Source: Rhizomicrobium sp.
GTDB lineage: Bacteria; Pseudomonadota; Alphaproteobacteria; Micropepsales; Micropepsaceae
Length of the DNA stretch: 64,000 bases
Direction of reading: 5' to 3'
Assembly: GCA_035275465.1 (NCBI GenBank)
Contig: DATEMS010000047.1
Coordinates: 12,960 to 76,959, forward strand
Within the stretch, counting starts at the first letter, position 1; each line of letters opens with the position of its first letter. Below, in pieces: positions 4,040-62,056 of the stretch. Under the pieces are notes generated by a model. The model was not told the origin of the DNA. It searched no databases and saw nothing but the letters and a program-made list of their open reading frames with translations. The position numbers were made by a program, and so were the translations under genes.

Positions 4040-5464
4040 ATGAGACGGGCGCCGGCGCTTTTGACGGCCCTGTTGCTCACGGCTTGCGTGGACGCCCCGC
4101 CCACCACGCCGCAAGTGGCGGCGCTGGACCAGAACGATCTGGGCTTGACCGGCGCGGCCGCGCCCCAGGCGCCGCAGCAATGGTGGAAGGCGTTCCAGGA
4201 CCCGCAAGTGGACCGGCTGGCGGGTCTGGTGATGGCGGACAATCCCACCCTGGCGGCGGCGATGGCGCGGCTGAGGGCGGCACAAGCGGAATGGACGGTG
4301 AGCCGCGCGCAAAATCTGCCGCGCCTGGATTTGGACGCCAGCCAGCAGCGCACTTTGTTCAGCCAAAATTCCATCATCCCCCCGCCCTATGGCGGCAGCT
4401 ATCAATGGTTCGGAAATATCACCGCCGCCATGAACTGGAATCTGGATTTCTGGGGCCGCCAAGCGGCGCTGATCGAGAAAGCGCGCCACACCGCGCAAGC
4501 CGCGGCGCTGGACGCGGAGGGCGCGCATCTGGCGCTGTCGGGGGCCTTTGCCCAGGCCTATGTCAATCTGTTTCTCAATTATCAATATGGCGATATCGCC
4601 GATGCCACCGTCGCCCAGCGCGAAGAAATCGTGAAAATCACCCAGGGCCGCCTGAATGCCGGTTTGGAGAATGCCAGCGCGCTGGAGCAGGCCAAGGCGC
4701 TTTTGTCCATCGCCAAGGCCGATCAATTGCGCTTCGCCGCGGCGCGCGAAATGGATTTGCATGCCATCGCGGCCCTGGCGGGGCGGGGCGGGGACCTGTA
4801 TCAGACCATCACCCGTCCCCATCCCAATCTGAACGCCGCGCTGCCTTTGCCGCGGCAACTGCCCGCCGATCTTCTGGCGCGGCGGCCTGACATTCTGGCC
4901 GCCAAGGCGCGGGTGCTGGCGGCGATGGAGGGGCGCGCAGCGGCACAGGCCGATTTTTATCCCGACATCAATCTGGCGGCGGTGGCGGGATTTCAGGCCA
5001 TCGGGTTTTCCAATCTGCTGCGTGGCGACTCCCTCACCTTGGGGGTGGGGCCCGCGCTGCATCTGCCGATTTTCGACGCCGGAAAATTGCGCGCGCAGTA
5101 TGCTCGCGCCACCGCCGATCTGGATCTGGCGGTCGCCGACTACAACGCCGCCGTGCTGGCGGCCATCAAGCAGGTGGCCGATGCCATGACTCAGGTTGCC
5201 AGCCAGGAAGCCCAGCGCGTGCAACAGCAGGATGCGGTGGAGAGCGCCCAGCGCGCCTTCCGCATCGCCGAGGACCGCTATCGCGGCGGCTTGCAGACCC
5301 AGCTTCCCATGCTAACGGCCGAGGCGACCTTGCTGCAGGCGCGCCAGGCGCTGGCCTCGGTGGTGGCGGGCGCCGCCCAGCAACGCATCGCCTTGATGCT
5401 GATGGTGGGCGGCGGCTTTGACCCTTCGGCGCACTACGGCGAATTGCGCCAATCGCTGCCGTAG
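4040..5464 (+). CDS. Outer-membrane efflux lipoprotein, NodT/OprM (TolC) family
   Basis: Lipobox LLLTAC; WNLDFWG, LLARRPDI, FYPDINL and LPIFDAG motifs. Confidence 0.9.
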   Translation: MRRAPALLTALLLTACVDAPPTTPQVAALDQNDLGLTGAAAPQAPQQWWKAFQDPQVDRLAGLVMADNPTLAAAMARLRAAQAEWTVSRAQNLPRLDLDASQQRTLFSQNSIIPPPYGGSYQWFGNITAAMNWNLDFWGRQAALIEKARHTAQAAALDAEGAHLALSGAFAQAYVNLFLNYQYGDIADATVAQREEIVKITQGRLNAGLENASALEQAKALLSIAKADQLRFAAAREMDLHAIAALAGRGGDLYQTITRPHPNLNAALPLPRQLPADLLARRPDILAAKARVLAAMEGRAAAQADFYPDINLAAVAGFQAIGFSNLLRGDSLTLGVGPALHLPIFDAGKLRAQYARATADLDLAVADYNAAVLAAIKQVADAMTQVASQEAQRVQQQDAVESAQRAFRIAEDRYRGGLQTQLPMLTAEATLLQARQALASVVAGAAQQRIALMLMVGGGFDPSAHYGELRQSLP

Positions 5465-8824: not shown

Positions 8825-10357
8825 TTATCGGCCGCGTTTCGGCGCCGTGGCGAAACGCACGGCTTCCTCGGCGGCGGCGAGCAGGGCCTTGGATTTGTTG
8901 ATGGTCTCTTGATACTCGGCTTCCGCCTGGCTGTCGGCGACCACACCGCCGCCTGCCTGGACATACATGATTCCGTCTTTCACCAGCGCGGTGCGCAGCA
9001 CAATGCAGGTATCCATCGAGCCGTCAGCAGCGAAATAACCCACCGCGCCCGCATAGGCCGCGCCGCGTTTTTCCTTTTCGAATTCGTCGATGATCTCCAT
9101 GGCGCGGATTTTCGGCGCCCCCGTCAGCGTGCCCGCCGGCAGGCCCGCCGCCAGCGCATCCACCGCGTCGAGCCCGTCACGGATATCGCCTTCGACATTG
9201 GAGACCAGATGCATCACATGGCTGTAGCGTTCGATGAAGAAACTGCCGGTGACGGTGACCGTGCCGGTCTTGGCGACGCGGCCGACATCGTTGCGGCCCA
9301 GATCCACCAGCATCAGATGTTCGGCCCGTTCCTTGGGATCGGCCATCAGATCGTCGGCCAGCGCCTTATCGTCTTGCGGTGTCTTGCCGCGCGGACGGGT
9401 GCCCGCGATGGGACGGATGGTGACCTTGCCGCCGCGCAAGCGCACCAGCACTTCGGGACTGGAGCCCACGATCTGAAATCCCGGCATCGCCAGATAATAA
9501 AGGTAAGGCGAAGGGTTCAGCCGCCGCAAGGCGCGATAGAGCGAGAAGGGCGGCAAGCCAAAGGGGCGGCGGAAGCGCTGGCTGGGCACCACCTGAAACA
9601 CATCGCCCGCCATGATGTATTCCTTGGCGCGGGCAACAACCGCAAAATATTCGTCCTTGGTCATGTTGGACTGGATCGGCACGCCGGTTGGCAGATTGGC
9701 CGGCACTTCTGTGCTGGGCGGGGCAGGGCGCTCCAGCTCGGCCACCGCTTGGTCCAGCCGCGCGGTGCCGCGGGCATAAGCGGTTTTCGCGTCCACATTT
9801 TTGTCCAGCCAGACCGGCGTGATCAGAATGATCTCGTCCTTCACGCTGTCGAAGATGGCGGTGATGGTGGGGCGCAGCAGGATGGCATCCGGCAAGCCCA
9901 GCGTGTCGGGCGGCGGATGGGGCAAATGCTCCACCTGGCGCGCCATGTCATAGCCCAGATAGCCGAACAGGCCGGTGGCCATGGGCGGCAATCCGGCGGG
10001 CACATCCAGGCGCGTCTCGCGCGTCAGCGCCCGCAGGCTTTCCAGCGGTTTTGCCGTTTCGGGCGTGAAGTTGTCGGCTTTGCTGAGCGCGGAGCGATTG
10101 ATCTCGGCCACACCGCCCCGACAGCGCCAGATCAAGTCCGGCTGCAGGCCGATAATGGAATAACGTCCGCGCGCCTCACCGCCTTGCACGCTTTCCAGCA
10201 GAAAGGCGTTGTCGCGCGGTGTGCCGTCCTTGGCGAAACCCAGTTTGAGAAAGGCCGAAACCGGCGTTTCCATATCGGCCACCAGCCGCGTGTAAAGCAG
10301 CTGGGGACGGCCCGCGGCATAGCCCGCGGCGAAAGCCTCAAATTCCGGTTCGATCAT
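8825..10357 (-). CDS. trpE: Anthranilate synthase component I
   Basis: LLESVQGG, GDVFQVVPS, NPSPY, RPIAGTRPRG, EHLMLVDLGRND, YSHVMH, PAGTLTGAPK, QAGGGVVADS. Confidence 0.96.
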   Translation of the reverse strand: MIEPEFEAFAAGYAAGRPQLLYTRLVADMETPVSAFLKLGFAKDGTPRDNAFLLESVQGGEARGRYSIIGLQPDLIWRCRGGVAEINRSALSKADNFTPETAKPLESLRALTRETRLDVPAGLPPMATGLFGYLGYDMARQVEHLPHPPPDTLGLPDAILLRPTITAIFDSVKDEIILITPVWLDKNVDAKTAYARGTARLDQAVAELERPAPPSTEVPANLPTGVPIQSNMTKDEYFAVVARAKEYIMAGDVFQVVPSQRFRRPFGLPPFSLYRALRRLNPSPYLYYLAMPGFQIVGSSPEVLVRLRGGKVTIRPIAGTRPRGKTPQDDKALADDLMADPKERAEHLMLVDLGRNDVGRVAKTGTVTVTGSFFIERYSHVMHLVSNVEGDIRDGLDAVDALAAGLPAGTLTGAPKIRAMEIIDEFEKEKRGAAYAGAVGYFAADGSMDTCIVLRTALVKDGIMYVQAGGGVVADSQAEAEYQETINKSKALLAAAEEAVRFATAPKRGR

Positions 10358-20124: not shown

Positions 20125-21099
20125 ATGCCCGATGCTGCAAAAAGCAATTCTGAATCCCTGAAGAAACTCTACCACGACATGCTGCTGATCCGCCGATTCG
20201 AAGAACGGGCGGGGCAGCTTTACGGCATGGGCCTGATCGGCGGCTTCTGCCATCTCTATATCGGCCAGGAAGCGGTGGTGGTGGGCCTGATGGGTGCCGC
20301 CAAGCAGGGCGACCAGCAGATCACCGCCTATCGCGACCACGGCCATATGCTGGCCCAGGACGTCGATCCCAAGGCGGTGATGGCCGAACTGACGGGGCGT
20401 TCCACCGGCCTGTCGCGGGGCAAGGGCGGCTCGATGCACATGTTCTCGTCCGAGAAGAAATTCTATGGCGGCCACGGCATTGTCGGCGCCCAGGTGCCGA
20501 TCGGCACCGGCCTGGCTTTCGCCAACAAATATCGCGGCAATGATGCGGTCTGCCTGACCTATTTCGGCGACGGCGCCGCCAATCAGGGTCAGGTCTATGA
20601 AAGCTTCAACATGGCCGAGCTGTGGAAGCTGCCGGTCGTCTATGTGATCGAGAACAACCAGTATGCCATGGGCACCAGCGTGGCGCGGTCGTCCGCGGTG
20701 GCGGACTTTTCCAAGCGTGGCGCCTCCTTCGGCATTCCCGGCATGAGTGTGGACGGCATGGACGTGGAGGCGGTGCAGGCCGCAGGCCTGGAAGCGTTCG
20801 AATTCTGCCGCGGCGGCAAAGGCCCGATCATCCTGGAGATGAAGACCTACCGCTATCGCGGCCATTCCATGTCGGACCCGGCCAAATACCGCAGCAAGGA
20901 AGAACTGACCGAGATGCGCGAGAAGCGCGATCCGATCGAGAATTTCGGCAAGAAGCTGATCGAGCGCGGCTTGGTGAATGAGGAAGATCTGAAGCAGATG
21001 GATGCCGAGGTGAAGCGGGTGGTGGTCGCCGCCGCCGAATTCGCCACCGAGAGTCCGGAACCTGGCCTGGCTGAACTTTATACGGACATATACGCCTGA
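20125..21099 (+). CDS. pdhA: Pyruvate dehydrogenase E1 alpha
   Basis: [28 protein letters not shown]...[15 protein letters not shown]. Confidence 0.98.
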
Positions 21100-22511
21100 T
21101 GAGCACCCAAATCCTGATGCCCGCGCTGTCGCCCACCATGGAAGAGGGCAAGCTGTCCAAATGGCTGGTCAAGGAGGGCGATACCGTCAAGTCCGGCACC
21201 ATCCTGGCCGAGATCGAGACCGACAAGGCCACCATGGAATTCGAGGCCGTGGACGAAGGCAAGATCGGCCAGATTCTGGTGGCCGAAGGCACCGAAGGCG
21301 TGAAAGTCAATTCGCCTATCGCGCTCCTGCTGGCCGATGGCGAAGCGCCGGGCGCCGCGCCGGTGAAAGCTAAAGCGCCGCAGGTCCCCCTCACCCAAAG
21401 CGGTGCGGATGGAAAGAGCGCCGCCTCACGTCCCCTCTCCCCCCAAGGGGGAGAGGGCGCAGCGCGAAGCGCTGCGGGTGAGGGGGTGGAAGTCGCCGCC
21501 GATCCGGAAGTCCCCGAAGGCACGCAATTCGTCAATCAGACGGTGCGCGACGCGCTGCGCGACGCCATGGCGGAAGAAATGCGCCGCGACGATCTAGTAT
21601 TCCTGATGGGCGAAGAAGTCGCCGAATATCAGGGCGCCTATAAAATTTCCCAAGGGTTGCTGGAGGAATTCGGTGCCCGCCGGGTGATCGACACGCCGAT
21701 TACCGAACATGGTTTCACCGGGCTTGGCATCGGTGCGGCCTTTGACGGTCTCAAACCCATCGTCGAATTCATGACCTGGAACTTCGCCATGCAGGCGATG
21801 GATCAGCTGATCAACTCCGCCGCCAAGACCCGCTACATGTCCGGCGGCCAGATGAGCTGCCCCATCGTGTTCCGCGGCCCCAATGGCGCGGCCGCCCGCG
21901 TCGCCGCCCAGCACAGCCAGGATTACAGCGCCTGGTATGCCAGTGTGCCGGGCATGAAAGTCGTCGCGCCCTATTTTGCCGCCGACGCCAAGGGCTTGCT
22001 GAAAGCCGCCATCCGCGATCCCAATCCGGTGATCTTCCTGGAAAATGAGATCGTTTATGGCCGGTCGTTCCCGGTTCCCAAGCTGGACGATTTCGTGCTG
22101 CCGATCGGCAAGGCGCGCATCTGCCGCGCCGGTGCGGACGTCACCATCGTGGCTTACTCGATCACGGTCGGCCAGGCGCTGGAAGCCGCCGAGAAGCTGG
22201 CAGAGGAGGGTATCGACGCCGAGGTGATCGATCTTCGCACCCTGCGTCCGCTGGATATGGACACGGTGCTGGAGAGCGTGAAGAAGACCAACCGCATCGT
22301 CACCATGGAGCAGGGCTGGCCGGTCTGTTCGGTGGGCTCGGAGATTTGTGCGCGCGTGGCGTTGGAGGCCTTCGATTATCTCGATGCCCCGCCGACCAAG
22401 GTCTCGGGCAAGGATGTGCCCATGCCCTATGCCGCCAATCTGGAAAAGCTGGCGCTGCCGACGGTTGAGGACCTGATTCAGGCCGTCAAAGCCGTCTGTT
22501 ACAAGGCTTAA
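21099..22511 (+). CDS. pdhB: Pyruvate dehydrogenase E1 beta with N-terminal lipoyl domain
   Basis: Lipoyl ETDKA motif; [36 protein letters not shown]. Confidence 0.98.
21386..21486. repeat. Palindromic repeat element inserted in frame inside pdhB
   Basis: Outer stem CCCCCTCACCC/GGGTGAGGGGG; inner stems CCCTCTCCCCC-caa-GGGGGAGAGGG and CGCAGCGC-gaa-GCGCTGCG; same family as extragenic copies at 30243 and 34179. Confidence 0.85.
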
Positions 22512-22515
22512 GCAC

Positions 22516-23823
22516 ATGGCCACCAACATTCTCATGCCGGCACTATCGCCCACCATGGAAGAGGGCAAGCTCGCCAAGTGGCTTGTGAAGGAAGGCGACA
22601 CCGTCAAGTCCGGCACCATCCTGGCCGAGATCGAGACCGACAAGGCCACCATGGAATTCGAAGCGGTGGACGAGGGCAAGATCGGCAAGATCCTGGTCCC
22701 CGAAGGCAGCGAAGGCGTCAAGGTCAACGCCCCCATCGCGGTGTTGCTGGATGACGGCGAAAAACTGGGCGATGTGGATATCGCGGGCGCCATGAAAGAC
22801 ATCAAGGCGGCGGTGAAAGCCGAGGCCGGTGCGCCCGCGCCCAAAGCTGCTATTCCTGCGGCTCCCGTACCCGCCGCCAAGGTGGATGGCGCGCGCATCT
22901 TTGCTTCGCCGCTGGCCAAGCGCATCGCCGCGACCAAAGGCATTGATATTTCCGCACTGGCCGGCTCGGGTCCGCGCGGGCGCATTGTTAAGTCGGACGT
23001 GGAAAATGCCAAACCGGGTGCGAAACCCGCTGGCGCCGCCACCAGCACCACCGCAGGTGGCGCGTCAACAAGTCCCGGCGTGGCGCCGCTGCCCGATGCG
23101 CGGCTGCTCTATCCGGCGGGTTCCTATGAAGAAACCCCGCATGACAATATGCGCAAGGCTATCGCCAAGCGCCTGACCAGCGCCAAGACGCTGATCCCGC
23201 ATTACTACCTGACCATCGATTGCAATCTGAATGCCCTGATGGCGGTGCGCGAAAAGATGAACGCCGCCGCGCCCAAGGGTAAAGATAAGGTCCCGGCCTA
23301 TAAATTGTCGGTCAACGACTTCATCATGAAGGCCTCGGCCATGGCCTTGATGAAGCATCCGGATGTGAACGCCTCCTGGACCGACACCGCCATCCTGCGC
23401 CACAAGGACGCCGATGTCGGCGTGGCGGTGGCGCTGGATTTCGGCCTGATCACACCCATCGTCTTCAAGGCCCAGACCAAGGGGCTGGTGGAGATCAGCA
23501 ACGAGGTCAAGACCCTGGCCGCCTTGGCCAAGGAAAAGAAACTCAAACCCAATCAGTATGAGGGCGGCGGCTTCTCGGTCTCCAATCTGGGCATGTACGG
23601 CATCAAGAATTTCACCTCCATCATCAACCCGCCGCAAAGCTGCATTATCGCGGTGGGCGCGGGCGAAGAGCGCGCCATTGTCGTGAACGGCAAGATCGAA
23701 GTCGCCACGGTGATGACGGTCACCATGTCGGCGGATCACCGGGTGGTGGACGGCGGCACCGGCGCTAAGTTCCTGGCCACCCTCAAACAGTTCATCGAGG
23801 AACCAGCCTCGATGCTGCTGTAA
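22516..23823 (+). CDS. pdhC: Dihydrolipoamide acetyltransferase (E2)
   Basis: Lipoyl ETDKA, E3-binding ASPLAKRIA...[13 protein letters not shown], catalytic SADHRVVDG. Confidence 0.97.
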
Positions 23824-25240: not shown

Positions 25241-25320
25241 TTCGTCATGGCCCGCTTTATGCGGGCCATCCATACGGTGACAGGGTTATGGATGGCCCGG
25301 ACAAGCCGGGCCATGACGAA
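25241..25320. repeat. Extragenic palindromic repeat (GTCATGGCCC...GGGCCATGAC family)
   Basis: 13-bp outer stem TTCGTCATGGCCC/GGGCCATGACGAA with internal hairpins GGCCCGC/GCGGGCC and GCCCGG/CCGGGC, directly after the lpdA stop. Confidence 0.85.
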
Positions 25321-40451: not shown

Positions 40452-42140
40452 ATGACAGACGTGGTGCGTAGCGAAACCTGTCCGGATGAGGGCATGCGGG
40501 GGCGGTTGTTGGGTACCGCTCAGGCCTTTGTGCTGAACGGGAACCAGGATTTTTCGCTGGCGTCCCTATGCCGTGAAGCCGGCGTGGACGGTTCCGTCTT
40601 TCGCAACCACTTCAGCAGCAAGGCCGAATTGATGGGGGCTCTGATGCGTGACCAAGCCCAGCACCAGGTCCAGCCCAAGGCTGTTGCTCAAACCATTCCG
40701 GAACCTCCCCGTCCAATCACGGTATTGGAACCCGGATCAGCCTCTAAGGCGGAGCTTGAGCCGTCCGTTTTCACACCCGACGCATGGCTCGAGCGCCGCC
40801 TTAGAGTCTTTGAACGCACCTTGAACGCCCTGGAAGCCAAAGCTGAGACCACGGCCCGGGAACAGGCCCGCGTTATCGCGCAGTTGGAGGAAAGACTGGC
40901 GGCACAGGGAACGGCAAGCGAGGGATTACCGGCGGTTGCGCAGGCTGCGATGGTGGCGCCGCAACCGGCGCCTCTCTTGCCGCCGACATTGCCGGCCGAG
41001 CCGTCTGCCGCGCCGGTTTTGGCGCCCAATGCCATGCACCAACCGGACGCCGCCCCGGAAGCGCCAGCGGAAGTATCAGCGGCAGTGTCGGTGAACCTGT
41101 TGGTGGAAGAGCCGCCCTTGGCGAGCGAGCCGCCGGGGCCACAGCCGTTTCGGGAAGCGTGGCAACAAGAACTCCCTTTGATGCCACTCGCGCAAGACAC
41201 CAAGGCGCCGGCCGCTCCGCCAGATGAGGGGCCTGCGGGGCAGATCCTGATTTCTGAAGGCAAGACTTGCGACGATACTCTTTCCGGTGATAGGCCCGTG
41301 CCCGAAAACAAGACCCAGGCGGAAACCCCCAGTCTGTTGCGAAACACCTATGACGGCGCTTTTACGACGGTGGAACCGCAGACGCGTTTGAACAATGCCG
41401 GGCGCGTGCGCTGGCTGGCGGGTGGCGCTTTGTCGTTGGTGATCTTGTTCCTTTGCTTGGGACTTTTCCTGGACCGGCGTTCCGGTCCCACCGCTATCGC
41501 GCGTCAGATTGACGGCGTTGCGCGTCGGCAAGCAGCCGATACCATCATGAGCCGTACAAAAGCCTTGGCCGACGCGGGCAATCCCCGCGCCCAGGCACGG
41601 CTGGCATTGGCGTATCTGCGCGGGCAGGGCTCCGCGGGAGACGCCAATGCCGCGTATCTTTGGAGTCTGTCGGCGGCGCGGGAAGGCAATCCTGTCGCCC
41701 AATATCTTTTGGGCGTTCAGTACCTGCATGGCGACCGCGTCAAGGCCGATCCGGCGGCGGCCGTGCAATGGTTTCAGCGCGCCGCGGACAAGGGCAATCT
41801 GAAGGCGATGCACAATCTTGCCATCGCCTATGCCAATGGCCAGGGCGTCGAAAAGGATGAAGCCAAGGCGGTGGAATGGTTCGCCAGGGCCGCCAAGCAT
41901 GGCTATGTGGATTCGGTTTTTAATCTCGCCGTGATGTATGAGCGTGGCGCCGGCGTGCCGCAGGATCCGCTGCAGGCCTTCAAATGGTACAGTATCGCGG
42001 CGATGGCGGGTGATGCTTCCGCCAAGGAACGGCTGGCCACCTTGCGCGGCGAGATGACGGCGGACGAGATCAAGCTGGCCAGCAACGCGGCGCAAGCCTT
42101 TGAACCGGCCCCCGCAGCGGAAGACGCCAACACGCTTTAA
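40452..42140 (+). CDS. TetR-like HTH + coiled coil + Pro-rich linker + TM + Sel1-repeat protein
   Basis: N-terminal LCREAGVDGSVFRNHFSSKAEL; TM around aa 320-340; about four Sel1 repeats (AQYLLG..Y..G, AMHNLAIAYANGQG, SVFNLAVMYERGAG). Confidence 0.82.
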   Translation: MTDVVRSETCPDEGMRGRLLGTAQAFVLNGNQDFSLASLCREAGVDGSVFRNHFSSKAELMGALMRDQAQHQVQPKAVAQTIPEPPRPITVLEPGSASKAELEPSVFTPDAWLERRLRVFERTLNALEAKAETTAREQARVIAQLEERLAAQGTASEGLPAVAQAAMVAPQPAPLLPPTLPAEPSAAPVLAPNAMHQPDAAPEAPAEVSAAVSVNLLVEEPPLASEPPGPQPFREAWQQELPLMPLAQDTKAPAAPPDEGPAGQILISEGKTCDDTLSGDRPVPENKTQAETPSLLRNTYDGAFTTVEPQTRLNNAGRVRWLAGGALSLVILFLCLGLFLDRRSGPTAIARQIDGVARRQAADTIMSRTKALADAGNPRAQARLALAYLRGQGSAGDANAAYLWSLSAAREGNPVAQYLLGVQYLHGDRVKADPAAAVQWFQRAADKGNLKAMHNLAIAYANGQGVEKDEAKAVEWFARAAKHGYVDSVFNLAVMYERGAGVPQDPLQAFKWYSIAAMAGDASAKERLATLRGEMTADEIKLASNAAQAFEPAPAAEDANTL

Positions 42141-43018
42141 TTTTTTGGTCCGGTATTTTCCGGATCGGGCGGGCGCCTCAGGCTGCCGTAATGGCTGGCC
42201 CAGACCTTGGTGAATTCGGCGCCCAGCAAGAAAATCTGTGCCGAGAAATAGACCCATATCAGAAGCACGATAATGCCGCCCGCCGCGCCATAAATATTGG
42301 CAGTGACGAAATTGACCAGGTAATAACCGATCAAACTCTGCCCCGCCTCGAACAAAAGCGCGGTGCCGAAGCTTGCCACCAACACGTCCCGCCACAACAA
42401 TTTCCTGTTGGGCAGCACCTTGTAGATGGCGGCAAACAGAAGAGCGACGGTCAGGAAGCCGATCCCGAAATTGATCGCCGGGATTGTGGCGTCATATATG
42501 TCGGTGTAACGGTCCAGCACTTCGCCCAACAGGCGGATCCCCGTGGCCATGACCATGGAGGCCAGCAACAACACCCCCAGCCCGATGACCAGGGTAAGGC
42601 TCAACACCCGGCCGCGCAGCAGTTGATAAAAATAAGATTCATGGCGGGGCGCCTTCCAGACCACATTCAGCGCGTCCTCTATTTCGGTGAAGAATCCAGA
42701 TGCGGTGACGATCAGGGCGATGACGCCGATCAGGCTGCTGGCCAGGGTATGGTCGCCGCTTCTGACATGCAGGATGGCGAGCTGCACCATATCGGCGCTT
42801 TCCGATGTCATGATCCGGGTCAACTGATCATGCACCGCGCTGCTGGCGGCATCCTGGCCCAGGCCCAGCGCGGCGATCGCGGTGGCGATAAACAGAACCG
42901 GCGCGATGGCGGTGACGGCATAAAAGGAAATAGCCGCACCGCGCGTCAGGGCGTTGTCATCGACAAAGGCTTCGACGCCTTCCTTGAACAGCATCCAGAC
43001 GGTCAGGCGGCGGCCCAC
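42137..43018 (-). CDS. YihY/virulence factor BrkB family membrane protein
   Basis: GAAISFY, IEDALNVVW, IYKVLP, YGAAGGIIVLLIWVYFSAQIFLLGAE. Confidence 0.92.
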   Translation of the reverse strand: MGRRLTVWMLFKEGVEAFVDDNALTRGAAISFYAVTAIAPVLFIATAIAALGLGQDAASSAVHDQLTRIMTSESADMVQLAILHVRSGDHTLASSLIGVIALIVTASGFFTEIEDALNVVWKAPRHESYFYQLLRGRVLSLTLVIGLGVLLLASMVMATGIRLLGEVLDRYTDIYDATIPAINFGIGFLTVALLFAAIYKVLPNRKLLWRDVLVASFGTALLFEAGQSLIGYYLVNFVTANIYGAAGGIIVLLIWVYFSAQIFLLGAEFTKVWASHYGSLRRPPDPENTGPKN

Positions 43019-43101
43019 GGCGTTCTCATGGCTTGTGAAATAGAATCAAGGATGGGTTCCCTGTGGTTCCCCCAACGTAACAGGCCTGAAGAAAGTTTCA
43101 T

Positions 43102-43302
43102 CTAGTGCCCCGATTCCGAAATTCGCACGATCACGATATCGGGTTTTGGCGAATTTCGGAATCGTGAGGACGCTAGCCAACTTATTGATTCCTAGTGTCG
43201 TTTTGGTTTCGAAGTTCGCCAAGGGCTCGATACTGATGATAGGGCGAACTTCAAAACCACGACACTAGGCGCAAACCACGGTGCGCCTCGGACGTTAGCC
43301 AA
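43102..43302. other. Two related long hairpins, each with a 22-nt loop (candidate structured RNA/DNA element)
   Basis: 16-bp perfect stem 43111-26/43149-64; about 26-bp stem 43191-220/43243-69; 7-bp stem 43267-88; direct repeat GGACGYTAGCCAA at 43168 and 43290. Confidence 0.7.
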
Positions 43303-43323
43303 AGGAGGGTCACCGTTAAGGCA

Positions 43324-45360
43324 TTGATAGGCATGGCCGTTACCGGAGAGTCGCACAAGCCAGGATTGACATGGATGCGCGCGGCGCTGCGCGAGCGTAT
43401 CGTTTCGGATTTCCGCGATTTCCGCTTCACCTGGGCTGGTTTCTTCAAATGGAGCGGCATCACCCTGGCGGCGTTTCTGTTCGCCGCCATCGTGACGCTT
43501 TATTTCCTGGACTGGAACCAGATGCGCGGGCCCATCGGCCGCTATCTGTCGCACCAGACCGGGCGGCAGGTGCGGATCGACGGCAAGCTTGCGGTAAAAT
43601 TGTTTACTTGGCAGCCCGGTATCGATGCCCATGGCGTCTATGTTGGAAATCCCGATTGGGTGCAGGAACCGCAAGCGGCAAAGGCGGATCGTTTCCGTGT
43701 TGAACTCAGGCTGATGCCGCTGCTGTTGGGCAAGTTGATCGTGCCCCTGGTCCAGATCGACCGGCCCGACATTCTATTGGTGCGCGATGCTTCGGGCCGC
43801 ACCAATTGGGACAGCGGCGGCCGCAATCCCAATGCGGCATTCCAGCTTCCGCCTATCCGGCGCTTTCTGATCCGCGACGGCCATGTGCAAATCAACGATG
43901 CGGTGCGCAAGCTCCATTTTACCGGCACGGTCACCTCCGAGGAAAATGCCGGGGGCGGGCGGGCGGCTTTCACCCTGACGGGGGCAGGCAACTTGAACAA
44001 AAGCAAGTTCCTGGCCGACATCAAAGGCGGACCGCTGTTGAATGTGGATCAAAGCAGGCCTTATACTTTCACCGCCGATGTGCGCGCCGGTGAAACGCGC
44101 GCCCTGGTCAACGGCGCTATCACCCAGCCTTTTCATCTGGACCGGTTTACCGCCGGGATCCAGGTCAGCGGCCCGACCTTGTCCGATTTGTATTTTTTGA
44201 CGGGACTGGTTTTGCCCAACACGCCGCCCTACCGCATGAGCCTGTCGGTGACGCGGGACGGCGGCTTTTATCGGCTCACCGATATCGCCGCCATGGTGGG
44301 GAGCAGCGATCTGCACGGCAATTTGTCGGTGGATGCCTCAGGCGATATCCCGTCTTTAAAGGGCCGGGTGACTTCGCGGGTTCTGGATTTCAAGGATTTG
44401 GGTCCTTTGATCGGCGGGGGAAAGCGTATGCCGGCCGCCGGCCGCTATCTGTTGCCCGAAACGGTGCTGCACACCGAGCGGCTGCGCCAGACCAATGCGG
44501 AAGTGGACTATAGCGCGACCGCCATCCAGTCGCGCGATTTTCCGCTGCGCAGCCTGGATACCCATATCAGCCTGCAGGGCGGTGTACTGAACCTCAAGCC
44601 GCTGGCCTTCGGCTTTGTCCAAGGCAAGCTCAGCGGCGCGATCAGGATCGATGCGCGCAAGGCTATTCCCACCAGTTCGGTGGACGCGCGCATCACCGAC
44701 ATCCGAGCCGAGAATTTCATCAAGAGCAGCGACAAACCCATCTTTGGCATGTTGGAAGCCCGCGCGGTCCTGACCGGAACCGGCAAGTCGGTCCATGACA
44801 CCGCGTCGAACGCAAATGGCAGCTTTACCGCCGTGGTGCCCAGCGGCGGCATGCGTCACAGCCTGGCGGAATGGACGGGCATAGACGTGCTGACGGCGCT
44901 GAGCCTCAATCTGGCGGGCGACAATTCCAACACAAATTTGCGTTGTGCGGTTGCCAGCTTCGGCGCCAAGGATGGGGTTTTGACCAGCCAGCACATCGTG
45001 ATTGACACCGATCCGGTGCGGGTGGATGGGACCGGACGCATCAATCTGCGCGACGAAACACTGGATATGCGCCTGCAAGGAAAGCCGAAAAATTTCCAGC
45101 TGATGCGGGTGCGCGCGCCCATCACGGTGAAGGGGGCCTGGGCCCATCCGGCGCTGGGCGTGGAGGCGGGACCGGTGTTGGCGCAGGGCGGTTTGGGCGC
45201 GGCGCTAGGCCTGCTTAATCCTTTGGCGGCGATTCTGGCTTTCATCGATCCCGGGCTGGCCAAGGACGCCAATTGCGGGCCGCTTTTGGCCGATGCCAAG
45301 GCAAAGGGGGCTCCTGTCAGGCAATCTACGGTGCGTAACGCACAGGCGCCACGGAATTAA
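43324..45360 (+). CDS. AsmA family protein (YhjG-like bridge-like lipid transfer fold)
   Basis: N-terminal TM, LDWNQMRGPI, GRTNW, NTPPYR, NTNLRCAVASF, RAPITVKG. Start uncertain (43324-43372). Confidence 0.88.
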   Translation: MIGMAVTGESHKPGLTWMRAALRERIVSDFRDFRFTWAGFFKWSGITLAAFLFAAIVTLYFLDWNQMRGPIGRYLSHQTGRQVRIDGKLAVKLFTWQPGIDAHGVYVGNPDWVQEPQAAKADRFRVELRLMPLLLGKLIVPLVQIDRPDILLVRDASGRTNWDSGGRNPNAAFQLPPIRRFLIRDGHVQINDAVRKLHFTGTVTSEENAGGGRAAFTLTGAGNLNKSKFLADIKGGPLLNVDQSRPYTFTADVRAGETRALVNGAITQPFHLDRFTAGIQVSGPTLSDLYFLTGLVLPNTPPYRMSLSVTRDGGFYRLTDIAAMVGSSDLHGNLSVDASGDIPSLKGRVTSRVLDFKDLGPLIGGGKRMPAAGRYLLPETVLHTERLRQTNAEVDYSATAIQSRDFPLRSLDTHISLQGGVLNLKPLAFGFVQGKLSGAIRIDARKAIPTSSVDARITDIRAENFIKSSDKPIFGMLEARAVLTGTGKSVHDTASNANGSFTAVVPSGGMRHSLAEWTGIDVLTALSLNLAGDNSNTNLRCAVASFGAKDGVLTSQHIVIDTDPVRVDGTGRINLRDETLDMRLQGKPKNFQLMRVRAPITVKGAWAHPALGVEAGPVLAQGGLGAALGLLNPLAAILAFIDPGLAKDANCGPLLADAKAKGAPVRQSTVRNAQAPRN

Positions 45361-61388: not shown

Positions 61389-61400
61389 TAGCTTATAAGG

Positions 61401-61442
61401 CCATTCCAAATTAATGACCAATGGGTTATTAATTTGGAATGG
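61401..61442. promoter_or_regulatory. 42-bp palindrome overlapping the TetR start codon (probable autoregulatory operator)
   Basis: CCATTCCAAATTAAT-N12-ATTAATTTGGAATGG with perfect 15-bp arms. Confidence 0.75.
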
Positions 61443-62056
61443 CCAAACGCTGGCAACGCCGCAAAGAAGCGCGCACCGCAGAGATTCTGGAAGCGGCGCT
61501 TGGCCAATTCGCGCAAAAGGGTTTTGCCGCCACCAAGCTGGATGACGTTGCCAAGAGCGCCGGCATCACCAAGGGCACCATCTATCTTTATTTCGACAGC
61601 AAGCAGGCTTTGTTCGAGGCCTTGGCGCAAGGGTCGATCGGCGCGCAGATGGATGCGGTGAAGGCGCAGTTGGAAAATTTTTCAGGGTCGAGCGCCGAAC
61701 TGCTCAAGCTGGTGCTCAACACCATGGGGCATTTCGCGCAAACCAGCGACCGGGTGGTGTTGCCGCGCATGGTCATGGCGGAAGCCGCCAACTTCCCCAA
61801 GCTGGCGCAATTCTGGCGGCGCGAGATCATCGCGCGCGGGCTTGGTATTTTTACCTTCATCATCCGGCGCGGGGTGGAGCGCGGCGAATTTCGCGCCGTG
61901 GATCCGGAGCATGCGGCGCGGCTGTGCGTAGCGCCGGTGCTGATGATTGTGTTGTGGCGCACCACCTTCGCGCGTTTCGATGAGACGCCTTACGACCATC
62001 AAGCCTTGATCGAAACCCATCTGGAAACCTTGCTGACGGGGTTGAAAGCGCCATGA
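61439..62056 (+). CDS. TetR/AcrR family regulator
   Basis: FAQKGFAATKLDDVAKSAGITKGTIYLYFDSKQALF. Confidence 0.93.
   Translation: MAKRWQRRKEARTAEILEAALGQFAQKGFAATKLDDVAKSAGITKGTIYLYFDSKQALFEALAQGSIGAQMDAVKAQLENFSGSSAELLKLVLNTMGHFAQTSDRVVLPRMVMAEAANFPKLAQFWRREIIARGLGIFTFIIRRGVERGEFRAVDPEHAARLCVAPVLMIVLWRTTFARFDETPYDHQALIETHLETLLTGLKAP

Follow-up and report, generated by a model that had tools for sequence, protein, structure and literature searches.

The divergent yihY and asmA genes of a Rhizomicrobium sp. contig are separated by a region that contains two long hairpins, and the question raised by this locus is whether these structures belong to an RNA gene or a control site of its own or whether they represent something that occurs elsewhere as well. 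The stretch of DNA analysed, 64,000 nucleotides in all, is called the window and its positions are used throughout. An earlier note made from its letters had proposed an unannotated ncRNA, a processed repeat-loop RNA or a cruciform or recombinase site. Our analysis indicates that the segment 43102-43268 is, almost beyond doubt, a copy of a dispersed DNA repeat. The best explanation overall, which we consider fairly likely, is a non-coding, non-autonomous repeat dispersed among alphaproteobacteria and akin to MITEs and REPINs.

Anatomy of the hairpin doublet

The whole element (43102-43268, 167 nt, non-coding, with no strand of its own) is a doublet made of a first unit (U1), a linker and a second unit (U2). 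Its limits are given by two kinds of data: the jump in contig depth and the loose contig ends described below start at 43102 and stop at 43268 or 43269, and nhmmer places two units at 43102-43176 and 43192-43268. U1 (43102-43176, plus strand), the hairpin bearing GANTC, was delineated from its fold and matches the family profile with an E value of 1.7e-14. Its perfect 16-bp core pairs CGATTCCGAAATTCGC (43111-43126) with GCGAATTTCGGAATCG (43149-43164), as the earlier note had described apart from a shift of about 1 nt in the coordinates, and encloses a loop of 22 nt (43127-43148), the middle of which is GATATC (43135-43140). The outer stem of U1 is imperfect, with the bulged bases on the 3' arm, and runs from CTAGTG (from 43102) to CGCTAG (up to 43176), CTAG terminating both sides. 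The 15-nt linker (43177-43191, plus strand) reads CCAACTTATTGATTC, for a family consensus of CAAnnTATTGATT.

U2 (43192-43268, entered on the plus strand, with its best profile match on the minus strand at an E value of 1.3e-12) belongs to the 75-78-nt class, is inverted with respect to U1 and distinct from it in sequence, and reads CTAGTGTCG...CGACACTAG from end to end. Its stem, previously estimated at about 26 bp with a 3-nt bulge and one mismatch, was found to comprise 25 bp and to show, besides a TTT bulge in its 5' arm, a single C·A mismatch (43210/43253). The loop of U2 (43221-43242) is also 22 nt long, the equality of the two loops being as reported before, and has GATACT at its centre, versus GATATC in most other copies. 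On metagenome contigs, other copies have a G at 43253, which repairs the mismatch, TC at 43233/4, an A at 43172 and one C fewer at 43177; the window copy carries a few private changes.

Folding energies are low on both strands. As RNA, the region folds at -92.5 kcal/mol on the plus strand (z -6.5) and at -91.8 kcal/mol on the minus strand (z -7.8), and in each case none of 200 shuffles is equally stable; as single-stranded DNA, each hairpin folds on either strand at -20 to -24 kcal/mol (z -4.8 to -9.3). The third stem drawn at this locus does exist in a weak form at 43269-43288, but it is a chance-level fold (z 0.11, 89 of 200 shuffles as good) and lies outside the element, in an ancestral flank (43269-43302, plus strand) that is kept in element-free loci. 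Similarly, the motif GGACGYTAGCCAA that was thought to follow each unit is present twice, at 43168 and 43290, but its two copies differ in origin: the first consists of the 3' end of hairpin 1 and the start of the linker, and the second belongs to the flank and is kept in relatives without the element, the conserved box GGACGTTAGCCAA (43290-43302) being found upstream of asmA in most relatives. A terminator search of 43102-43302 returned no terminator-like site and confirmed that a U tract is absent, and no promoter consensus was found within the element. Rfam gave no match for the whole window at the gathering threshold and nothing meaningful for 43000-43400 at E values up to 10, where the best sub-threshold match was a plant miRNA model (E 1.1, 17 bits).

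The element belongs to a family dispersed in Alphaproteobacteria

Contigs from four metagenomes containing the locus (X1-X4) were aligned to 42800-43600. The summed contig depth rises over the element from about 15 to 550-990 in X1, from 5 to 185-430 in X2 and from 14 to 125-380 in X3, with a similar picture in X4, and the rise is confined to approximately 43097-43285. About 100 contigs lie over the element with mutually unrelated flanks and with loose ends from 43102 to 43268 or 43269. Several of them run from the 3' arm of U1 through the linker into U2, which implies that the two-hairpin layout recurs elsewhere.

When one genome per species was scanned for the pattern CGAANTTCGC-N20-26-GCGAANTTCG, at least 120 stretches were found, 80 of which were listed; the pattern itself imposed the core motif, and the conservation of the core among these stretches is therefore partly a matter of ascertainment. 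Almost all of the matches listed are alphaproteobacterial, their hosts including Xanthobacteraceae (Bradyrhizobium, Afipia, Nitrobacter), Hyphomicrobium, Mesorhizobium, Devosia, Rhizomicrobium/Micropepsaceae, Caulobacterales and Rhodospirillaceae. The common unit reads CTAGTGTCC-CGATTC-CGAAGTTCGC on its 5' side, followed by a loop of 21-25 nt, and GCGAACTTCG-GAATC-(A)AAG-GGACACTAG on its 3' side, one arm being longer by 2-4 nt. Its size is 75-78 nt, with a stem of 25-28 bp, a 2-4-nt bulge in one arm and CTAG limits. A profile built from these units and run with nhmmer identified 208 units across the 0.88 Mb of scan loci, among them, once the seeded clusters are set aside, some 19 clusters, a density of about one in 46 kb; this figure is in line with the single copy of the 64-kb window and with the 40- to 65-fold excess in depth. 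Profile and repeat searches detected no second copy within the 64-kb window, and two subfamily queries run in the distant mode of blastn found no copy among 72,556 plasmids.

The units are organised in a regular manner. Among the adjacent unit pairs, 68 of 72 are in a plus/minus arrangement with linkers of 12-15 nt, and the order of U1 and U2 is fixed relative to the linker CAAnnTATTGATT, which sets the orientation of the doublet. In oriented doublets, the first unit is of the TGTCCC/GATTC type and the second is of a different TGTGG or TGTCG type. A doublet of about 165 nt is the usual form of the family, many seemingly single units possessing a diverged partner. The copy in the window is such a canonical doublet and represents the Micropepsales subtype, which also occurs in Mesorhizobium sp. 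LHD-90 (locus L052). The loops change faster than the stems and have a lineage-specific centre, GATATC in the subtype of the window and TGCGGCA in Xanthobacteraceae. According to crude ORF calling, the copies are intergenic and lie between genes of every orientation. In an Afipia genome (locus L060), two doublets at 834-998 and 4374-4535 bracket the dnaK-dnaJ operon, which indicates that copies adjoin core housekeeping genes.

A repeat match, which the earlier note had itself named as refuting its proposal, was hence found in the form of a high-copy dispersed family. Since copies occur in numerous genera and at numerous unrelated loci, a locus-private RNA gene is ruled out. The window copy is an ordinary member of a widespread repeat and, most likely, a mobile element that is not autonomous and is of the CIR, MITE or REPIN kind.

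A probable insertion between yihY and asmA

The gene of the YihY/BrkB family lies on the minus strand (42137-43018) and is divergent from that of the AsmA family, which lies on the plus strand with a conserved ATG at 43334. Since the flanking genes are divergent, the element occupies a divergent control region, at a distance of 83 nt from where yihY starts and of 65 nt from the ATG of asmA. Eight relatives keep yihY and asmA, or yihY at least, and none of their eight syntenic loci (L001, L011-L013 and L134-L137, about 130 kb searched) contains a unit of the family; the closest relative is L001, whose YihY is 96% identical to that of the window. The homologues of YihY indicate that the window comes from a Rhizomicrobium-like alphaproteobacterium. 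The intergenic region upstream of yihY measures 305 nt in the window and 146-190 nt in the relatives, and the extra 165 nt or so of the yihY-asmA region is explained by the element. A structured ncRNA specific to this locus, as had been suggested, or a regulatory operator of yihY/asmA would suit the position of the hairpins in a divergent control region and the covariation of the two units with each other; however, the element is repeated at a large number of unrelated loci across many genera, and the eight syntenic relatives keep their yihY and asmA (or yihY) without it. The dispersal data refute this locus-specific reading, which is scarcely credible, and a false ncRNA candidate can be removed from the annotation.

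The insertion point can be read by comparing the filled site of the window with an empty one. At L135, the sequence is TTTCAC-CTAG-GCGG, versus TTTCAT-CTAG[163 nt]-GCGC in the window; the flanks are collinear and the net gain is 163 nt relative to the one CTAG of the empty site. The insertion gap placed by MAFFT is ambiguous, and the junction was taken from direct reading and from a pairwise alignment. The filled-versus-empty evidence consists of this one comparison, as the fetched loci yielded no further filled and empty pair, L039 and L023 being orthologous and both filled. The CTAG tetranucleotide is rare in the background (0.38 per kb), and abutting units in L124 and L034 have one CTAG in common. 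Taken together, the single CTAG of L135, the shared CTAGs and the rarity of this motif fit an insertion at CTAG. On the other hand, variant termini covary as inverted repeats (CCAG...CTGG) in 11 cases versus 2 as direct repeats, which means that the CTAG ends belong to the element and argues against a simple target-site duplication. That CTAG would be a mere duplication of the target is at odds with this inverted-repeat covariation of the termini, and oriented doublets display no visible flanking direct repeat beyond CTAG.

From these comparisons, we infer that the copy in the window was recently inserted into the control region of the divergent yihY and asmA, where it may incidentally alter the spacing of the promoters, the local structure of the DNA and the sites of methylation. 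The end of U1 deserves a comment. In 43168-43180, the G at 43172 and the extra C at 43177 differ from the family consensus, and both private changes raise the likeness of this segment to the flank box located 122 nt downstream (43290-43302), and the flank box itself, compared with that of L001, shows one change, toward the element. This likeness between the U1 end and the flank box may reflect short-tract homogenisation.

Some features of the flanks and of the relatives are worth recording. A pair of GGTTCCC boxes separated by 3 to about 10 nt is present at 43055-43085 in the window, and also in L001, L011 and L134-L137, upstream of yihY; in most relatives the pair is followed by AACGT(A/C)AC, and the element is inserted just beyond. 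These boxes look like a regulatory site of the divergent promoter. On the asmA side, a conserved box GCGTTAGC(C/G)AA(A/G)GGAG lies some 30-45 nt upstream of the asmA ATG, at 43290-43310 in the window and at the corresponding place in most relatives; this box explains the second GGACGTTAGCCAA, and before it stands a small hairpin that is specific to the lineage. In L001, the site reads TTGG and not CTAG. At 9990-10030 of this locus (reverse strand), a 13-nt tandem duplication, GAAAGTTTCACTT twice, is found exactly at the element site, together with a 12-mer, AAACCACGACAC, identical to the arm end of U2. A deletion, or a remnant, in the history of the L001 site is conceivable. The gene call of the public copy of YihY that is 96% identical gives 328 amino acids, with a start about 35 codons upstream of that of the 293-residue protein of the window, and this start (L001, 10001) is probably over-extended into the intergenic region.

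Stem covariation points to a constraint on DNA

An alignment of 148 units (A1) was the source of all pairing figures. Standard pairs account for 96.5% of the stem cells, and changes on both sides are observed in 18 of the 24 pairs. The number of compensatory cells reaches 333 versus 68 in shuffles, none of 500 shuffles attaining 333, and slid controls, in which the arms are shifted, are just 21-45% paired. The selection on structure proposed from the single locus is thereby borne out, the stems covarying over 148 copies. The same is true of the A/T versus G/C covariation of the two cores, which is real and recurs throughout the family (columns 23/63: GC 118, AU 23), the difference between A-T and G-C in the cores being the commonest such change in that family column.

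The nature of the constraint can be approached through the mismatches. G·T and A·C mismatches are both rare and similar in number (10 versus 10 in U1, 11 versus 8 in U2); being equally rare, they indicate a constraint that is symmetric between the strands, as for DNA. This strand symmetry fits a DNA palindrome, whether as a hairpin of single-stranded DNA, a cruciform or a symmetric protein site, and does not fit an RNA read off one strand. The orientation of doublets with respect to the neighbouring genes, as judged from crude gene calls, is unbiased as well (23 versus 16 and 12 versus 14). Selection at the RNA level was thus sought through wobble asymmetry and orientation bias, and neither test gave a signal. 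Among the options first put forward, a cruciform or recombinase site comes closest to the data, and the palindromes are kept at the DNA level. Neither the unannotated ncRNA nor the processed repeat-loop RNA, both taken as private to the locus, is supported, in view of the high-copy dispersal, the strand-symmetric pairing and the lack of orientation bias; in addition, no Rfam match and no discrete transcript of the window copy were seen.

A role in RNA could nevertheless be envisaged for the family as a whole, the co-transcribed hairpins serving as targets of RNase III or RNase E, as barriers to 3' exonucleases or as a source of small RNA. Comparable roles have reportedly been put forward for elements of the REP, ERIC and Correia families. 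Metatranscriptome contigs do include other family copies inside longer transcripts, for example a 436-nt contig that ends in U1 and the linker, which suggests that part of the copies are transcribed together with adjacent genes, and the RNA fold is very stable (-92 kcal/mol). Nonetheless, RNA libraries may hold DNA and carry-over is possible, and in the metatranscriptomes of the same study the window copy is without coverage and no transcript of it was seen. Moreover, G·U pairs are tolerated no better than A·C mismatches, orientation is unbiased relative to gene ends, a U tract and an Rfam family are lacking, and the window copy lies between divergent gene starts and not in a 3' UTR. A function at the RNA level is on these grounds very unlikely.

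Relationship with known repeats

The closest counterpart that we know by description is the CIR family (CcrM-associated intergenic repeats, CIR1-CIR4; Chen & Shapiro 2003, J Bacteriol 185:4997), which is present in Caulobacter crescentus, Brucella and other alphaproteobacteria (PMC2229807). According to a later account, CIR elements are strictly intergenic, conserved across alphaproteobacteria and devoid of a known mechanism (Delihas 2008, PMC2229807), and are depicted as two long inverted repeats forming two arms and a linker, with TA termini and a conserved GANTC (PMC2229807). By this account, the window family shares with CIR its dispersal, its intergenic place, the arms and linker, the TA ends and the conserved GANTC sites, and no transposase is mentioned there as known for CIR. 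Two differences appear: the length reported for CIR is about 110 bp, versus about 165 bp for the window family, and GANTC is placed by Delihas at the terminal loop, whereas it is found in the stems and linker of the window family (PMC2229807). Judged by description, the window family has about an even chance of being the CIR family itself; the two probably belong to one kind of element and may be identical. A two-hairpin repeat of the CIR type, bounded by CTAG and bearing GANTC, spans many alphaproteobacterial orders, the uncultured Micropepsales included.

REP sequences are defined by stems that are rich in GC, measure 20-40 nt and bear either a GTAG or a CGTC tag (PMC3733652), whereas the units of the window family, with their 75-78 nt, loops of 21-25 nt and CTAG ends, fall outside this definition. 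As in REPINs, an inverted doublet would be the replicating unit, copies are numerous, the palindromes are extragenic, changes in the arms are compensatory, no target duplication beyond CTAG is seen and plasmids are devoid of copies. Where the enzyme mobilising REPINs is known, it is a RAYT (Y1/HUH), encoded by a single-copy gene that lies away from most copies. Rarity in Alphaproteobacteria has been reported for the Group 1 RAYTs, which form the largest group and have the widest distribution (PMC5581495).

With MITEs, the window family has in common its terminal inverted repeats and its non-coding, intergenic and small character; CTAG flanks the filled site on either side and is present as a single copy in the empty site of L135. 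MITEs derived from insertion sequences that target TA or CTAG include Correia/NEMIS, RUP and Nezha, related to the IS630 and IS5 families. The terminal TAGTG of the window family resembles the Correia end TATAGTGG. Contrary to what is expected of MITEs, the termini covary in an inverted and not in a direct manner, and no parent insertion sequence with the same ends was seen in the 0.88 Mb of loci; furthermore, since the inner CTAGs flank a conserved linker, not all CTAGs can be target duplications.

Other palindromic repeats of alphaproteobacteria were considered. The Br-REP1 and Br-REP2 sequences of Bradyrhizobium have consensus sequences that differ from the window family (PMC5082802). RIME1 and RIME2 (Rhizobium-specific intergenic mosaic elements) and Bru-RS1/2 of Brucella are intergenic palindromic mosaics of about 100 bp, and the Bru-RS elements are hot spots for the insertion of IS711 at YTAR sites (PMC3163539). 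RIME1, compared by description, resembles the window family in that two large palindromes are described for it, and RIME and Bru-RS appear similar to the family in concept. RIMEs have been reported absent from Bradyrhizobium, where the window family is present. Within the literature searched, no source was found in which the element's sequence strings are printed.

GANTC sites and a possible role for the host

GANTC is the site of the alphaproteobacterial methyltransferase CcrM. The window copy has GATTC in the 5' arm of U1 (43112-43116), its partner GAATC in the 3' arm (43159-43163) and a further GATTC in the linker (43187-43191). In the family, GANTC reaches a density of 14.8 per kb in the units versus 1.9 per kb in the background, an enrichment of about 8-fold. 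At least one such site is carried by 52 of 62 U1 units, and zero by 41 of 62 U2 units; half of the doublets have another one at the linker junction. The 2003 abstract of Chen and Shapiro is said to place a CcrM site centrally in one CIR repeat, as opposed to the mid-arm position seen in U1 of the window family and its absence from most U2.

It is therefore worth considering that the repeat could be a DNA element kept by the host, the paired GANTC sites and the cruciform-prone palindrome being used by CcrM, GcrA or a nucleoid protein for replication-linked epigenetic control or for chromosome structure, which was the original speculation for CIR. Besides the enrichment itself, the commonest double change in the stem falls on the N of GANTC (UA 102, AU 41) and leaves the site intact, the sequence is kept across orders, copies are absent from the 72,556 plasmids and adjoin core genes such as dnaK-dnaJ, and an orthologous copy is kept in L039 and L023, the flanks of which are about 88% identical. 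Yet 64 of 181 units are without any GANTC, including most U2 and the U2 of the window; close relatives live without the element at this locus; and the retention of GANTC could be inherited from master copies. A maintenance of the repeat by the host for such a function is unlikely, and the preferred reading remains that of a dispersed, non-autonomous MITE- or REPIN-like repeat.

Possible mobilisation in trans

As such a repeat, the element would move as DNA by means of an enzyme supplied in trans, which would recognise the hairpin or palindrome as well as the CTAG target; target duplication would be absent apart from the shared CTAG, and the whole would work like a MITE or a REPIN. We lean toward the view that the family is, or was, mobile through such a trans-acting enzyme. 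In the 8-kb stretches around some 135 clusters, all-against-all clustering of the ORFs and Pfam searches revealed no transposase beside the copies; the neighbours are ordinary (SDR, ABC transporter, TctC, DnaK/DnaJ and TPR proteins), and the genes bracketed by units are housekeeping ones such as dnaK-dnaJ. Matching termini 1-2 kb apart, a possible mark of a parent insertion sequence, were not seen in the 0.88 Mb of loci. The absence of an enzyme nearby and of plasmid copies are traits of REPIN-like or orphan MITE families, the enzyme of which is encoded elsewhere by a single-copy gene.

Purely selfish repeats do not usually keep their sequence over several orders as this family does. A bolder scenario would be that of a long-lived replicator confined to the chromosome, mobilised by a hairpin-recognising enzyme with insertion at CTAG and no target duplication of the conventional type, and the U1 unit of which would have been co-opted as a paired methylation platform for CcrM/GcrA. 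We regard this combination as quite improbable; if true, it would mean a REPIN-like partnership with the host in a clade without described RAYT systems, and a new insertion chemistry. The remaining interest of the family lies in the mobilising enzyme and in the link with CcrM sites.

Other repeats and palindromes in the window

Three further sites of the window were noticed in the course of this work. A second palindromic doublet is present at 25243-25320 and consists of two small GC-rich hairpins, GGCCCGC...GCGGGCC and GGCCCGG...CCGGGCC, with 34-nt inverted arms that are 88% complementary. In X1, the contig depth rises there from about 15 to 110-200, and the contigs have unrelated loose ends, which implies that this doublet is also dispersed; it looks like a classical REP/REPIN. 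At 61399-61444, GGCCATTCCAAATTAATGACC and GGTTATTAATTTGGAATGGCC form a near-perfect palindrome with 21-nt arms that are 95% complementary around a 4-nt spacer; its AT content is high for this genome, and it might serve as an operator or as a terminator. Finally, the segments 21099-21354 and 22516-22771 constitute a direct repeat of 256 nt with 84% identity, separated by 1.4 kb, which probably lies in paralogous or internally repeated coding sequence.
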